Shown: piece after piece, positions 24,955 to 42,955 of the stretch
How positions within the stretch are numbered: position 1 is the first letter of the stretch
How the letters are laid out: every line of letters starts with the position of its first letter
Assembly: GCA_036276755.1 (NCBI GenBank)
Contig: DASUOG010000005.1
Coordinates: 13,777-77,776, forward strand
DNA: 64,000 nucleotides
Direction: 5' to 3'
Source of the DNA: Candidatus Saccharimonadales bacterium
GTDB lineage: Bacteria; Patescibacteriota; Saccharimonadia; Saccharimonadales; 2-12-FULL-41-12
Made by a program: the position numbers and the translations under genes
Notes under the pieces: model-generated
The model's input: only the letters and a program-made list of their open reading frames with translations
The model's database searches: none
Told to the model about the DNA's origin: nothing

Positions 24955-26325
24955 TTAGCTTTCGAATATCCTTTGGTATTCCTCAGTTTCCGGCCAGCCG
25001 ATGAAGTATCGTTCGGTATGGTAGCTGCATATCAAAAACATGCCGAGTAGTATTATCGCTATCCCGAGCAACCGGGCCAGAGGATTGTTCGGGAATATGC
25101 TCATCCATTGTTCTATCAGGTAGGCAATACCTACGGCTATGATTATGTAAATCAGGGGCAGAAGAACTGATATATATGTAATACCGTTAACAGCGATCAA
25201 CAAGATAGCCAGAATTATGGATGAAAATATAATTTTTTTGCCCACGGGATGGCTTTTAGTCCGAATAAGGTATACCAGGCCGGCCAGCAAAAAAATTGCC
25301 GAAACGAAATCGATTATAGGGGTTTTATAAAGCCAGATCGAATAGTCATTGATGCCGTTGATAAACAGCTGGCCCGGTAACTCGGCCAAAGTAGCTTTCA
25401 TGGTGCCAAGAGAAGGCAGGCTGCCTACCTCCGCCCCGGCCAGTTTTATCAGCTGTGTAGAACTATCTAGAGACAGATAATTTATAACCAAGGCCATATA
25501 CGAAACGATTACCGACATGAACAGCACAGCCGGCAGGATAATATTCTTTATGCTTTTCTTTTCTTTAAGATAGTATAGCCCGATACTTGCCGCTATCAAG
25601 AAAAGCCATACGGCCCCCGGCACGAACAACAATTGCGCTAGTAAGATTGCTCCTATGACCGTGATGGCCAGTGAATTCGTGCGTAACACCAGGCTGCCGC
25701 AGTACAAAAGTACAGGTACCAAAGCTGCCGCCAGGACCGCAACGCCGTCTTGTCGGGCCTGGAGCAATAGCCAGGTTGAGCTTGCATAAGCCAAAAGTGT
25801 CAACACAGCCGTACGTTTGTTAATCCACCTAGCTACCAGCTTATAAAAACAAAACAGCGAGAACAGCAAAACAGCAACGGAGAGCAACCTTGCTTCCAGC
25901 TGTCCGGCCAAGTGCAGTTTGGCCAGGCCTATTAACAGCAATTTCATAGGCATATAATCCGCCGATTCTATGTCTGAAAGATGTTCATATGTTTTGGATG
26001 CGCCGTCATCGGACATAAGCGCCGGAAAATTCTCAAGATCGAACAGGTAGATTCCCAGTATAAAGACAGGTATGACCATGTACAATATCCTGTCTCTGAT
26101 CCAGCCTAACGTGCCGGCAATGGATAACCGGCGCTTATCCGCAGGTCCTTTAACCTTCTCCGGAGCCTGTTTTTTGGCAGATTCGGGTTTATTATCGGTT
26201 TTTGTGGACTCTTTTTCAGCTTGAGGTTTTTGTGTGATGCCGTCTATCGTCGAAACCGGCTGTATCTTACGGGGCAATACACCCCCCATACTTAAGATAA
26301 CCGGTCTTTTTTGCTTTTTCACCAT
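24955..26325 (-). CDS. polytopic membrane protein (possible GT-C-type glycosyltransferase)
   Basis: 456 aa. Hydrophilic Lys-rich N-terminus followed by at least 10 TM helices. A DLE/DD-containing first loop is only weakly reminiscent of ArnT/PMT-type enzymes. Confidence 0.4.
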   Translation of the reverse strand: MVKKQKRPVILSMGGVLPRKIQPVSTIDGITQKPQAEKESTKTDNKPESAKKQAPEKVKGPADKRRLSIAGTLGWIRDRILYMVIPVFILGIYLFDLENFPALMSDDGASKTYEHLSDIESADYMPMKLLLIGLAKLHLAGQLEARLLSVAVLLFSLFCFYKLVARWINKRTAVLTLLAYASSTWLLLQARQDGVAVLAAALVPVLLYCGSLVLRTNSLAITVIGAILLAQLLFVPGAVWLFLIAASIGLYYLKEKKSIKNIILPAVLFMSVIVSYMALVINYLSLDSSTQLIKLAGAEVGSLPSLGTMKATLAELPGQLFINGINDYSIWLYKTPIIDFVSAIFLLAGLVYLIRTKSHPVGKKIIFSSIILAILLIAVNGITYISVLLPLIYIIIAVGIAYLIEQWMSIFPNNPLARLLGIAIILLGMFLICSYHTERYFIGWPETEEYQRIFES

Positions 26326-29176: not shown

Positions 29177-29686
29177 TTAGAGGGCGGCTTCCAGGGCAGC
29201 CCACTCCGTGTCCTTGTCATCCTGTGGAACGTTCACGCTGACCTGATCACCCGGTTTGGCCTTAAAATAGGTAACACTGGCTAAAAGCACCCTGTATTGC
29301 TTGTCACCGGCCTTCACATAATAATGACCGTCTTTTAGTTCCAGTTTTCCGACGACTTGTTTTCTCGGTATTGGACCGATCTGCTTATACATGAAGGCGC
29401 CGTCTTCTGAAATAGTAAGTTTCAATATATCGCCCTGGACCAGTTTGGACTTGCTGGCGTAGTTAGCCGGTACCGGGTAAGTCTTGCCGTCGCTGCCTAC
29501 CATGTTCTGCCCGTCGAATACACCCTCTATGACCTTGCCGATATTTTCTTCTACCGCCGCGTTTGTAGCTTCCGGGTCTTCACCAAGCAAGCTTAGGATC
29601 AGCTCCTTAGCTGCGGCAAGACTGGTCTCCGCCTCGGAAATCAAGGTACGGAGTCGTTTTACTTGTTTATCAGGTACATCTGCCAT
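29177..29686 (-). CDS. hypothetical protein
   Basis: 169-aa soluble ORF with no recognisable motif. Confidence 0.35.
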   Translation of the reverse strand: MADVPDKQVKRLRTLISEAETSLAAAKELILSLLGEDPEATNAAVEENIGKVIEGVFDGQNMVGSDGKTYPVPANYASKSKLVQGDILKLTISEDGAFMYKQIGPIPRKQVVGKLELKDGHYYVKAGDKQYRVLLASVTYFKAKPGDQVSVNVPQDDKDTEWAALEAAL

Positions 29687-34250: not shown

Positions 34251-34751
34251 TTAAGCAAATTGCCGTCCGACGATATTTTTCAGGTGTTTTTTGTTGTATA
34301 GTTTATGGCTGTTTTTTTCCAGATAAACTTTTTTGATACCCGCTGCTAAAATAGCATTCCAGCAGGGTTCGCAAGCCCACCAATGCCCCCATAGATACAG
34401 TTCCCCGTCGCTCAGATCCTTTTTTGGATGATTGTGTAGGGCATCCACGATAGCCCGGGGTTCGCTGTGGTTTTTCGGATGACAGCCTTCGCAAAGTTCG
34501 TATCGCTGACCGGTAGGTATACCTTTTTTTACCCGCTCGCAGCCGAATTTATCGTGATAATCACTGCCGTTGGCGCCTCTGCCGATTATCTTCCCCTCAA
34601 GCACTATCACGGAGGCGGTAGGCATGGTCCGATCCAGCGAATTGCTCCTAGCAAATTCCCTGGCCGCACTCATGAACTTATTATCCCCATCGACGTAGTA
34701 AATGGTTTCGTCCTTCGGGATGAACGGATATTTTATTTCAGATTTTGCCAT
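34251..34751 (-). CDS. dCMP deaminase (cytidine/deoxycytidylate deaminase zinc-binding family)
   Basis: Zinc-binding and catalytic motif HSEPRA (H-x-E) and CEPCWNAI (PCxxC). 166 aa. Confidence 0.8.
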   Translation of the reverse strand: MAKSEIKYPFIPKDETIYYVDGDNKFMSAAREFARSNSLDRTMPTASVIVLEGKIIGRGANGSDYHDKFGCERVKKGIPTGQRYELCEGCHPKNHSEPRAIVDALHNHPKKDLSDGELYLWGHWWACEPCWNAILAAGIKKVYLEKNSHKLYNKKHLKNIVGRQFA

Positions 34752-34794
34752 TAACTCTAGTAATTATAAGGATTCTTATCTATAATCACAAGAA

Positions 34795-35631
34795 ATGGCG
34801 AGATTTGATTTTATCTACAGGTCTGTACTGGAAGACCTGATGAATAAGGGGGTGAAGGAAGTAAACAAGCGAACTGGGCATGAAACTAAGGCGCTTCCCG
34901 GAATCAGTTTTTCTATAGACTTGGAAAAAGACGGTTTTCCGCTGCTTGCCTTGAGAAAAATACCCGTAAAATTGTTCATTGCCGAGCAAGTCTGGTTCAT
35001 ATCAGGCAGTAGAAAACCGGAGATATTTTTACGAGACTATACGAAGATTTGGGATGATTTCACTAACCCGGGCGATGTAGTAACCGTAGCATACGGCTAT
35101 CGCTGGCGCAGGCATTTCGGACGCGACCAGCTGGGTAGCCTTGTTAAACTACTGGAAGAGGACAAGTCTTCCAGGCACGGGGTCATAGTAACCTGGGATC
35201 CGGCCAGTGACGGCCTGGGCGGCGTCAGCAAAAGCAACGTACCCTGTCCATTTACGTTCACGGTCAATGTAATAGGCGGTCGGTTGAATCTTATGAACGT
35301 GGTGCGCTCGAACGATATGATCCTAGGTTTTCCGCATGATGTGGCCGGTTTTGCTCTTTTGCAATGCATTTTGGCCCAAAAACTTGGAGTAAAGCCGGGA
35401 ATTTATACGCATACTATAGCGAACGCTCATATTTACGACACCCACTATCACGCCGCCGAAGAACTTATAAAACGTCCGGTTGACTCTGAACCGATAAAGT
35501 TAGAATTGCCCGAAAATAGCTTTGAGAGATCTGAACAAAAAGACCACGGGCTGGTAGATGAAATCTATGCCAGTTTGACTGCAAATTATAAGCCCGGTAA
35601 TAAATTAAAAGACTTGAAAATAATCTTATGA
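34795..35631 (+). CDS. ThyA-family paralog (thymidylate synthase / dCMP hydroxymethylase fold) with Asp at the pyrimidine-specificity position; predicted dCMP (or CMP) C5-methylase/hydroxymethylase
   Basis: Aligns along its length with ThyA. Conserved blocks: KIWDDF (folate-binding Trp), YGYRWRRHFG (Arg pair), catalytic Cys in VPCPFTF, SND...GFPHDV (Asp in place of ThyA Asn177), and AHIY. Confidence 0.8.
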   Translation: MARFDFIYRSVLEDLMNKGVKEVNKRTGHETKALPGISFSIDLEKDGFPLLALRKIPVKLFIAEQVWFISGSRKPEIFLRDYTKIWDDFTNPGDVVTVAYGYRWRRHFGRDQLGSLVKLLEEDKSSRHGVIVTWDPASDGLGGVSKSNVPCPFTFTVNVIGGRLNLMNVVRSNDMILGFPHDVAGFALLQCILAQKLGVKPGIYTHTIANAHIYDTHYHAAEELIKRPVDSEPIKLELPENSFERSEQKDHGLVDEIYASLTANYKPGNKLKDLKIIL

Positions 35632-35653
35632 GGAACATATAGTAGGTAACCAT

Positions 35654-36298
35654 ATGTCTGTTCTAACACGCGAAGATATCCTGAAGTACGTCAAAGAGGG
35701 CGGTCTCGGTTTTAAACCCGGACTCGATTCGTTCCAATTGCAAGCACACTCGGTAGACCTGAGGCTCGGTTTTACGTTTTTAGTACCGAAATCATGGTAT
35801 GTCAGCAAAGCGGGCCGCGAACAGATCCACATGGACTTTTATGCCGCTAACAAAAAAGAACACTTCGACATAGTCGAGCTGGAGCAAGGCCAATTCTTCG
35901 ACTTGCTTCCGGATGAGCACATATTGGTCTCGTCCTTGGAATCTGTCAAATTGCCGGCTGATCTTATGGGGGTAATGTATCCGCGGTCATCCACCAACAG
36001 GAAAGGTATTTCAGTTGATCAGACAGGTATAATCGACAGCGGTTATGAAGGCCAGCTGGTGATCCCGATACGCAATAATACCCAATCGCAAACCGTAAGG
36101 TTATATCCCGGTGAGCGTTTTTGCCAGATCGTTTTCCAACGTTTGAGCGGGGAGGTCAAAGCCCGAAAAAGCCGCTACCACCGAAAGGACATAATCGAAG
36201 GCGTAGACGTGGACAGTCTGGAAAATGAACGCGAAAAAGAAATCAAATTAATAACAAAAGGCGACATCAAAGAGCTTAAGAAGAGCTACCCGGTCTGA
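35654..36298 (+). CDS. dCTP deaminase/dUTPase-superfamily protein lacking the deaminase catalytic Glu (probable dUTPase/dCTPase)
   Basis: Strong similarity to Dcd (HSVDLRLG, VKLPADLMGVMYPRSSTNRKGI, GIIDSGYEGQLVIPIRN). The E. coli Dcd catalytic E138 position aligns to Pro. Confidence 0.7.
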   Translation: MSVLTREDILKYVKEGGLGFKPGLDSFQLQAHSVDLRLGFTFLVPKSWYVSKAGREQIHMDFYAANKKEHFDIVELEQGQFFDLLPDEHILVSSLESVKLPADLMGVMYPRSSTNRKGISVDQTGIIDSGYEGQLVIPIRNNTQSQTVRLYPGERFCQIVFQRLSGEVKARKSRYHRKDIIEGVDVDSLENEREKEIKLITKGDIKELKKSYPV

Positions 36299-42229: not shown

Positions 42230-42955
42230 ATGAAGGAAAGGAAAACTGCACGCAAGAGCCAGGCATCCAGAGTCAAGCACTTGCGTCCAAGGTCCTTAAC
42301 TTATTACCTGAAAGCTACCAAAGCCACGAAGAAGATCGGCTCGATAGCCACTAATGGATTCTTCCAAGTACGGGACTTTCTTGTTAAAGAAATTCCCCTG
42401 CCGTCAGCCCGTGATATTACCGGTTCGCTTACCGGTTTTTTTAATAGATCTCCAGTACTTAGCGGCCGCACTGAAACGGCTTCCGCAAAACAACCATCCG
42501 AAAAAAACGGCAACAAAAAAAATAATAACAGTTTTGAAGACGATGATTTAGAAACGATAGTCAAAAATTCCAACGAAGTTTTAGCTGAAGCGACTACCGT
42601 TTTTCCCTTTACCTTGTTCCCTGATACGGTTACCGTTGACAGGACCAAGCTTACCATCACCCAACGCACGTTTTTCTGGTCCGGCAAGGTAACGACCATC
42701 CATATAGAGGATGTGTTGAATATCTCGGCGAACGTCGGGCCGTTATTCGGCTCGTTGACCATCGCTATAAAGGGCCTGACCTCGGAAGACCACTACTCGA
42801 TAAATTACTTCTGGCGCAAGGACGCCATACACCTAAAACACATAATCCAGGGACATATGATGGCCCAACATGATAAGATCGATTACCGGCATCTGGAACA
42901 TCAGAAACTAATAAGAACTCTCCTAGAGCTGGGCCAAGACTCAAACCCCGAATAA
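42230..42955 (+). CDS. hypothetical protein (basic N-terminus, possible bacterial PH-like C-terminal domain)
   Basis: 241-aa ORF with a canonical start. No catalytic motifs recognised. Confidence 0.35.
   Translation: MKERKTARKSQASRVKHLRPRSLTYYLKATKATKKIGSIATNGFFQVRDFLVKEIPLPSARDITGSLTGFFNRSPVLSGRTETASAKQPSEKNGNKKNNNSFEDDDLETIVKNSNEVLAEATTVFPFTLFPDTVTVDRTKLTITQRTFFWSGKVTTIHIEDVLNISANVGPLFGSLTIAIKGLTSEDHYSINYFWRKDAIHLKHIIQGHMMAQHDKIDYRHLEHQKLIRTLLELGQDSNPE

Follow-up and report, generated by a model that had tools for sequence, protein, structure and literature searches.

The gene examined here, which we call TS(D), lies in a stretch of 64,000 nucleotides of the Candidatus Saccharimonadales bacterium assembly GCA_036276755.1 (contig DASUOG010000005.1, positions 13,777 to 77,776 of the forward strand; this whole stretch is "the window" below) and encodes a protein of the thymidylate synthase (TS) family carrying an aspartate at the position of the asparagine that determines pyrimidine specificity in E. 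coli ThyA. We propose that TS(D) is a dCMP C5-methyltransferase of the type known from phage XP12, whose product would probably be deaminated to dTMP by a neighbouring deaminase, with thymidylate kinase (Tmk) phosphorylating the dTMP and dihydrofolate reductase (DHFR) recycling the folate; judging from the sequence evidence set out below, we give this reading a probability of about 60%. Thymidylate synthesis is described with two solutions, ThyA and ThyX, both of which methylate dUMP. The open reading frame (ORF) of TS(D) is intact from ATG to TGA and encodes 278 aa; its product is 100% identical to protein P0001 of a metagenome-assembled genome, named [quoted passage not shown] at NCBI.

TS(D) belongs to the TS superfamily by both profile score and fold. 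The Pfam model Thymidylat_synt (PF00303) matches residues 8-253 with 169.2 bits against a cut-off of 24.3 (E 1.3e-49), and the strings KIWDDF, YGYRWRRHFG, VPCPFTF, VRSNDMILGFPHDVAGF and AHIY, quoted by a sequence-only reading of this DNA that saw an alignment with TS throughout, are all present. NCBIfam model NF002497 scores 132 against a cut-off of 327, and NF002496, NF002495 and the other NCBIfam models, TIGR03284 apart, likewise fall far below theirs. With an AlphaFold2 model of TS(D) (pTM 0.84), the top Foldseek matches are all full-length thymidylate synthases (E about 1e-19 to 1e-20); the structure prediction does not discriminate beyond the fold, the active-site loops having pLDDT <50 and no XP12-type structure having been solved. 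Alignment by phmmer with three solved thymidylate synthases sets RSNDMILGFPHDVAGF onto RSADIFLGVPFNIASY, ungapped near the motif, and MAFFT, run with E. coli ThyA, arrives at an identical register, anchored by R171/S172/D174 on R166/S167/D169, Cys151 on Cys146 and His212/Tyr214 on His207/Tyr209. Asp182 is unambiguously the equivalent of Asn177, as the sequence-only reading had it. A register error at this residue was considered and rejected: three phmmer and two MAFFT alignments agree, and the stretch from R166/S167/D169 to the Asp is gapless.

This substitution is one of six linked changes relative to E. coli ThyA (W83F, L143N, H147P, Q165V, F176H and N177D), whose positions were read in 200 aligned homologs of TS(D), namely 120 database proteins and 80 genomic loci. 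Asp stands at position 177 in 200/200, so that Asp182 is not a product of chance or drift. Canonical Trp83 is replaced by Phe (Phe89 in TS(D)) and canonical Leu143 by Asn (Asn148), each in 200/200, and canonical His147 by Pro (Pro152) in 199/200; canonical Gln165, which orients Asn177 in thymidylate synthases, gives way to V, I or L (Val170), and canonical Phe176 to His or Tyr, mostly His, as in TS(D). None of the ThyA residues Asn177, His147, Gln165, Trp83 and Leu143 is thus found in TS(D). Read together, positions 83/127/143/146/147/165/176/177 spell FHNCPVHD in TS(D) and FRNCPLYD in XP12, whereas 17 Asn-type representatives from the HMMER search described below show W-R-L-C-H with Q or M at 165, apart from Cys for His147 in one and Asn for Trp83 in one. 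The catalytic set is intact (R26, E64, Y100, R127, C151, R171, S172, D174, H212 and Y214, the first three being the equivalents of R21, E58 and Y94), and C151, E64, Y100, R171, S172, D174, H212 and Y214 are invariant or nearly so in the 200 homologs. The protein also has a TS-type C-terminal tail, and 36 aligned homologs show no variation in it at Y265, P267, I276 and the last residue, L278.

In a metagenomic association study, positions 177 and 147 are those that best separate cytosine-modifying from ordinary TS homologs (PMC8670742). The same paper cites earlier mutants, after Hardy & Nalivaika 1992, Liu & Santi 1992 and Graves et al. 1992: by its account, N177D in the E. coli enzyme and N229D in that of L. 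casei turn thymidylate synthase into a dCMP methylase, and D179N has the opposite effect in the dCMP hydroxymethylase (dCH, gp42) of phage T4, an enzyme crippled by this change, which is cited in PMC6400193 as well. Asp at this position had also been ascribed to natural cytosine-modifying enzymes by the sequence-only reading; our alignment bears this out for T4 gp42 and the XP12 enzyme, and PMC5175136 for MilA/BcmA.

These residues bear directly on the alternative that TS(D) is an ordinary thymidylate synthase that tolerates Asp, making dTMP and dihydrofolate (DHF) from dUMP and methylenetetrahydrofolate (CH2-THF) within a canonical dTTP operon, where the deaminase and/or a protein of the dCTP deaminase (DCD) family would supply dUMP. 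Canonical ThyA (EC 2.1.1.45; E. coli, L. casei) does share with TS(D) the fold, the dimer-type catalytic residues, the C-terminal tail and an operon linkage to DHFR; the equivalents of R21, E58, Y94, C146, R166, S167, D169, H207 and Y209 are all in place, and thyA of the candidate phyla radiation (CPR) is treated as thymidylate synthase in PMC12455944 and PMC11974145. TS(D) differs from E. coli ThyA, with which it is 27% identical, in the Asp/Pro/Val/Phe/Asn found at 177/147/165/83/143 and in having no "AWPTPDG" insert. The cited mutants speak against an Asp-tolerant thymidylate synthase, and so does the fact that Asp is accompanied by the loss of His147, Gln165, Trp83 and Leu143, which are near-constant in the 17 Asn-types; signature and best similarity point instead to the XP12-type enzymes, which make 5-methyl-dCMP (5mdCMP). 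The gene context, on which this alternative also draws, is weighed further below.

The ranking of relatives points the same way as the residues. BLASTP scores of TS(D) are 188 bits with RcSimone, 179 with Mallos and 169 with XP12, 99 with E. coli ThyA and 40 with T4 gp42, making the XP12-type phage dCMP methyltransferases its closest annotated relatives. A tblastn search of 50,697 phage records places XP12-like Mesyanzhinovviridae and related siphoviruses at the top, with 35-41% identity. Exhaustive HMMER searching of 1.84 billion cluster representatives returned 13,566 relatives. The best 89 consist only of Asp-types and of fragments that do not cover the site, and a canonical W-R-L-C-H-Q-x-N protein is first met at rank 90. 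Phylogenetic placement, which the sequence-only reading had called for, was obtained from a neighbour-joining (NJ) tree of 267 columns: all Asp-types form one clade, the CPR sequences are monophyletic inside this radiation with the XP12 group as the other large subclade, and T4 gp42 is an early branch of the clade, apart from the CPR sequences. Bit scores, HMMER rank and tree all put TS(D) nearer to the XP12 type than to either ThyA or the hydroxymethylases. The cytosine-nucleotide substrate suggested by the sequence-only reading is, in view of this similarity, best supported as a deoxynucleotide.

Much of what is known of the XP12 group comes from one recent study (bioRxiv 10.1101/2024.12.05.627091), in which 5mdCMP was formed in E. 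coli on expression of the XP12 TS homolog and of five out of seven metagenomic relatives. Deaminases of family PF00383 encoded beside such TS genes can be selective for 5-methylcytosine (5mC), and a synthesis of dT nucleotides from 5-methyl-dC nucleotides was proposed for them, in agreement with old labelling data on XP12; in phage metagenomes, the TS homolog has an adjoining deaminase in 70% of contigs with modified cytosine, against 6% of those without. TS(D) shares the TS fold and F83/N143/P147/hydrophobic 165/D177 with the XP12 methyltransferase (EC 2.1.1.54) and the TS homologs of Mallos, PaMx74, RcSimone-Hastad and MetaGPA; Asp177, Pro147 and a hydrophobic residue at 165 are what marks the XP12 type. 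The XP12, Mallos and RcSimone enzymes further have in common with it the motifs AYGYRWRxHFGRDQL and WDPAxDGLG....NVPCP and the TS-type C-terminal tail, and their genomes hold the same trio of Asp-type TS, deaminase and DHFR as the CPR cassette described below. There are differences, too. CPR TS(D) is 37-41% identical to the XP12 group, forms a monophyletic NJ clade of its own, and has His or Gln at position 127 and mostly His rather than Tyr at 176; its gene is a chromosomal one, conserved throughout a bacterial superphylum, not one carried by phages. The CPR deaminase, of the cytidine deaminase (CDA) fold, comes from an unrelated branch of that fold and is divergently transcribed, a DCD-like partner and Tmk are added, and the presumed purpose is the supply of dTMP, not 5mC-DNA.

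P0248, 45% identical to TS(D), is a close relative from outside the CPR; the phage-like contig that encodes it also has genes for a terminase, a dUTPase and a CDA-fold deaminase. Compared with the deaminase of the window, that of the closest phage-like contig gives only a weak match (E 0.003). Among Logan contigs, L085:1761-4154, L086 and L087 represent a terminase-bearing phage-like contig with a 45%-identical Asp-type TS, accompanied by a dUTPase of 137 aa, a CDA-fold deaminase and a small ORF resembling P-loop kinases. It may belong to a CPR phage, or may connect the cassette of the phages with that of the CPR.

"Methylase/hydroxymethylase" was the wording of the sequence-only reading, and the evidence favours its first half. 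A 5-hydroxymethylase of dCMP (or CMP), of the T4 gp42 or MilA type, would give 5-hydroxymethyl-(d)CMP and tetrahydrofolate (THF). The Asp at the specificity position is common to TS(D), T4 gp42 and MilA/BcmA (PMC5175136); T4 gp42 shares with TS(D) the catalytic Cys, Glu and Tyr as well, together with, by prediction for TS(D), a deoxycytidylate substrate. The polar Asn at Leu143 occupies the place where T4 Asp145 has been implicated in steering the reaction to hydration (PMC6400193), and hydroxymethylases release THF and need no DHFR (PMC5175136), which would suit a window in which none was found. T4 dCH, however, has no TS C-terminal tail (PMC6400193, PMC5175136), and its Val85 and Asp145, at TS Trp83 and Leu143, open and hydrate the site, with the pterin rotated away from hydride transfer (PMC6400193). 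TS(D) has the tail, invariant, and Phe89 and Asn148 rather than Val and Asp; Asn143 is also found in XP12, a proven methylase. Neither the T4 signature (V83, D143, T147, N176) nor residues of the V85/D145/T149 type are shared, identity to T4 gp42 is 22% (40 bits, against 169-188 for the XP12 group), the two stand apart in the tree, and DHFR, to which the gene of T4 gp42 is not linked, accompanies TS(D) in 66/80 relatives. No glucosyl- or carbamoyl-transferase and no hm-dCMP kinase was seen nearby.

As for MilA/BcmA, their preference for ribonucleotides accompanies an Ala at Ser167, and in both a Lys replaces the partner-subunit Arg and a large helical domain is added at the C-terminus (PMC5175136). 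TS(D) keeps Ser172, the Ser167 equivalent (200/200), keeps Arg127, has 278 aa with no extra domain, and does not lie in a nucleoside-antibiotic cluster; the retention of Ser167 argues against CMP as substrate. With the TS-type tail, the linkage to DHFR and the non-T4 signature, a dCMP methylase is favoured over a hydroxymethylase, which we consider very improbable. For a reductive methylation, one would look for the tail and a DHFR: the former is there, and the latter is in the cassettes of 66/80 relatives and was not found in the 64-kb window.

The genomic surroundings of TS(D) were compared in a scan of one genome per GTDB species, which yielded 80 loci with TS(D) at 57-82% identity; a gene is counted as nearby when it lies within flanks of about 6-10 kb. 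Nearly all loci bear a CPR label (Saccharimonadales, Kaiser-, Nomura-, Taylor-, Colwell-, Vogel-, Campbell-, Doudna- and Moraniibacteria), a few only the generic label "bacterium", and two are labelled Gammaproteobacteria. A CDA-fold deaminase is nearby in 76/80, and in 71 loci it directly adjoins TS(D) in divergent orientation, at a median distance of 47 bp. DCD-family genes occur in 71/80, directly after TS(D) in 40 and after DHFR in 24; DHFR occurs in 66/80, directly after TS(D) in 29 and after the DCD-like gene in 26; Tmk occurs in 55/80, directly downstream of the deaminase in 24. A fusion of Tmk with ThyX is confined to 10/80 loci, all of Saccharimonadales, and most of the 80 have no other TS or ThyX nearby. 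TS(D) is, then, the conserved ThyA-family ortholog of many environmental CPR lineages, set in a thymidylate-type cassette independent of ThyX. Two parts of the sequence-only reading are not supported by this comparison. One is its argument that TS(D) must do something else because ThyX already covers thymidylate synthesis: only 10 of 80 genomes have ThyX nearby. In those Saccharimonadales that do have ThyX, TS(D) is conserved to the same degree as the genes around it (82% identity vs 77-87%), which argues against simple redundancy. The other is the term "paralog": no second ThyA-family gene was found in the window, and TS(D) is the conserved ortholog of its lineage.

The two loci from genomes labelled uncultured Gammaproteobacteria (L077 and L084) have a cassette of CPR type in which TS(D) is 57-60% identical and the deaminase, instead of being divergent, follows downstream in the same orientation; they reflect either mis-binning, to which we lean, or a rearranged variant.

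Since the cassette is of thymidylate type (DHFR, Tmk, deaminase, DCD-like gene), the product of TS(D) more likely feeds dTMP than a separate cytosine-modification pathway. The same counts (DHFR 66/80, Tmk 55/80, deaminase 76/80, DCD family 71/80) and the rarity of another TS or ThyX nearby would equally be expected of the Asp-tolerant thymidylate synthase considered above. Two observations on gene content are at odds with that alternative: the DCD-like gene lacks the deaminase Glu (see below), and several streamlined Saccharimonadales retain both ThyX and TS(D). Taken with the residues, they lead us to regard an ordinary thymidylate synthase as unlikely, though it is the chief alternative to our reading.

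The divergent neighbour of TS(D) in the window, to which we would assign the deamination, matches Pfam dCMP_cyt_deam_1 (PF00383) with only 39.9 bits. It has HSE in place of the usual HAE, keeps CxPC within a WGHWW(A/C)CxPC motif, and has two sets of invariant residues, H95/E97/C127/C130 and H66/C71/C87/C90, the second of which looks like a second metal site. The family comprises 1,140 homologs and is apparently confined to the CPR; Foldseek finds dCMP deaminases as best matches and TadA equally, at TM about 0.5. We regard it as a candidate 5-methyl-dCMP and/or dCMP deaminase, the substrate being unreadable from homology.

The DCD-like protein scores 111 bits with TIGR02274, above the cut-off. 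At the catalytic Glu138 of E. coli Dcd, the column mutated in PDB 1XS4 (E138A) and 2V9X (E138D), it has Pro138, as do 66/66 CPR orthologs; the PRSS motif, Arg115 and the motif-III Asp are kept, and motif 4 is dUTPase-like (PGERFCQIVF). Judging from these residues, the protein is unlikely to deaminate dCTP and is possibly a dCTP/dUTP diphosphatase. The loss of Glu138 in 66/66 orthologs makes it a doubtful supplier of dUMP to an ordinary thymidylate synthase.

The Tmk-ThyX fusion matches Pfam Thymidylate_kin with 93 bits and Thy1 with 129.7 bits in two stretches; NCBIfam thyX gives 61.8, below its cut-off of 87.9, and phmmer found no PDB match to the ThyX domain at E 0.01 or better. The two ThyX halves bear complementary degenerate motifs, WGR-LASYLEQ-STRY in the first and RHR-MVDDLTW-Q...TPRY in the second.

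In the closest relative, L005 (82% identity), a DHFR gene (L005:4424-4918) separates TS(D) from the DCD-like gene, as one also does in L006, L008 and L082. In the window it is cleanly missing at 35632-35653, where a 22-bp gap remains; L007 shows the same loss, and its genome and that of the window both have the ThyX fusion.

On the reading we favour, the reaction would run by analogy with thymidylate synthase, T4 dCH and the XP12 enzyme: Cys151 would attack C6 of dCMP, Asp182 would recognise and protonate the N3/N4 face of the cytosine, the methylene of CH2-THF would move to C5, and the closed TS-type C-terminal tail would permit the folate to donate a hydride, with 5-methyl-dCMP and dihydrofolate as the products. 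In the pathway as a whole, dCTP or dCDP would be brought to dCMP, conceivably with the DCD-like protein, devoid of the deaminase Glu, acting as a dCTP diphosphatase; TS(D) would convert dCMP to 5-methyl-dCMP, the divergently transcribed CDA-fold deaminase would convert 5-methyl-dCMP to dTMP, Tmk would phosphorylate dTMP to dTDP, and DHFR would recycle the dihydrofolate. We propose that the cassette puts the logic of phage XP12, cytosine methylation before deamination, to use as cellular thymidylate metabolism. The nearest precedent is the phage mSCD-B5/XP12 route, in which an Asp-type TS beside a PF00383 deaminase likewise methylates before deamination and bypasses the dUMP-dependent thymidylate synthase; mSCD-B5 differs in acting on triphosphates and single-stranded DNA, not on monophosphates (bioRxiv 10.1101/2024.12.05.627091), and the CPR deaminase is of a different lineage. 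We found no earlier description of a cellular example of this phage route.

A dCMP methylase could also have its product phosphorylated into DNA, resulting in wholesale or high-level 5mC as in phage XP12. Enzyme type and partner set are indeed those of 5mC phages, and the DCD-like protein without the deaminase Glu could, as a dCTPase, deplete the dCTP pool. Nothing in the sequence requires this, though; no report of globally modified CPR DNA was found in the literature searched, the linkage to Tmk and a deaminase fits conversion to dT nucleotides, and most loci have no other thymidylate source nearby, so that 5-methyl-dCMP would be needed for dTMP. We consider this outcome the least probable of all.

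Several points weigh against methylation of dCMP followed by deamination. The first concerns the context: the composition of the cassette fits an ordinary dCMP -> dUMP -> dTMP operon equally well, and because such a dTTP operon would look alike, context cannot fix the order of methylation and deamination. That order is fixed only by the active-site signature and homology. On the enzyme itself, TS(D) does pass, marginally, the TIGR03284 model for the thymidylate synthase equivalog (111.4 against a cut-off of 108.35); position 127 is His or Gln in the CPR clade and Arg in XP12; the nearest characterised enzyme is only 37-41% identical; and the NJ tree carries no bootstrap or other support values. 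The deaminase matches solved dCMP deaminases weakly (phmmer against PDB, E 0.017 only), and BLASTP gave no significant match to XP12-type 5mC deaminases, to which it is unrelated beyond the fold. In the window, it is co-directional with the Tmk-ThyX fusion, which lies 59 bp downstream, and could simply supply dUMP to ThyX. A search of the 64-kb window with a hidden Markov model built from 66 CPR DHFRs found none (best E 0.29), which is awkward for a DHF-producing enzyme unless a DHFR is encoded elsewhere in the genome. Finally, for TS(D), as for every CPR member, the function is a prediction.

The features of the locus are listed in Table 1.

Table 1. Coordinates, in the window, of TS(D), its key codons and its neighbours.
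Feature	Coordinates	Strand	Basis or remark
TS(D), Asp-type TS-family gene, predicted dCMP C5-methyltransferase	34795..35631	+	Pfam, bit scores, fold search
Cys151-Pro152 codons: catalytic nucleophile (Cys146 equivalent), then Pro at TS His147	35245..35250	+	Alignments
Val170 codon, Gln165 equivalent; hydrophobic as in XP12 group (L/I) and T4 gp42 (M)	35302..35304	+	Alignment
Asp182 codon GAT, at the pyrimidine specificity position (Asn177 in E. coli ThyA)	35338..35340	+	Alignments
TS-type C-terminal tail ending ...YKPGNKLKDLKIIL and stop	35566..35631	+	Y265, P267, I276, L278 invariant, 36 homologs
CDA-fold zinc deaminase, 166 aa, HSE...CEPC and His/Cys cluster	34251..34751	-	Divergent from TS(D)
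Divergent intergenic region of 43 bp, deaminase/TS(D)	34752..34794	.	Median gap 47 bp in 71 loci
DCD-like (dCTP-deaminase-family) gene, 22 bp downstream of TS(D)	35654..36298	+	TIGR02274, 111 bits
Tmk fused to tandem ThyX-like domain, 763 aa	31900..34191	-	Pfam Thymidylate_kin, Thy1

The window, part of the core chromosome of a CPR/Patescibacteria bacterium, has the genes for L7/L12, L10, L1, L11, NusG and SecE flanking the locus, with DnaB, DnaX, RecR, CysRS and other housekeeping genes further out. A prophage or mobile island was considered and rejected, the neighbours being ribosomal proteins, NusG, SecE, DnaB, DnaX, RecR and aminoacyl-tRNA synthetases, and the GC content flat. Scanning the divergent intergenic region for promoters and terminators gave no matches above shuffled expectation. 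Elsewhere in the window, ORFs 24955-26325(-), 29177-29686(-) and 42230-42955(+) (456, 169 and 241 aa) match no Pfam family at E 1e-4 or better.

A comparison can be drawn with a cultivated oral Saccharibacterium, Southlakia epibionticum ML1, the only one of its group amenable to genetics, in which SEML1_0409-0412 form an analogous cluster of Tmk, dCTP deaminase, DHFR and TS; its TS has 313 aa, with the L. casei TS as best structural-domain match, and all four genes are non-essential by transposon sequencing (PMC10633639 supplement). As the Southlakia TS best matches that of L. casei, these transposon data have no bearing on the TS(D) family, and the TS of host-associated Saccharibacteria seems not to be that of the environmental lineages.

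In the literature, we found nothing on an Asp-type TS or on 5-methyl-dCMP in CPR. The combination of an Asp-type TS homolog with a deaminase and DHFR is known from phages, and we found no description of a CPR-wide chromosomal version; what sets the latter apart is the different deaminase lineage and the DCD-like partner without its deaminase Glu. We tentatively extend the proposal to the group at large, and with less confidence than for TS(D) itself: many CPR/Patescibacteria may make thymidylate by a third cellular route, consisting of a DCD-like diphosphatase, an Asp-type TS, DHFR, a deaminase and Tmk.

If this is true, a whole superphylum would use an order of reactions for which phage XP12 and its relatives are so far the only examples, and metabolic reconstructions of CPR bacteria would change, "thyA", mis-annotated across the superphylum, "dCMP deaminase" and "dCTP deaminase" all being mis-assigned. 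The 5mC pathway of XP12-type phages would become the viral relative of a cellular housekeeping pathway, giving the phage 5mC-DNA toolkit a cellular source or sink and raising the question of how 5-methyl-dCMP stays out of DNA; the cassettes would also hold new 5-methyl-dC-nucleotide deaminases, a kind of enzyme now used in methylation sequencing. If TS(D) is instead a genuine thymidylate synthase, it would provide the first example from nature of such an enzyme functioning with Asp at this position, and the textbook specificity rule by which phage DNA modifications are predicted would need qualifying.

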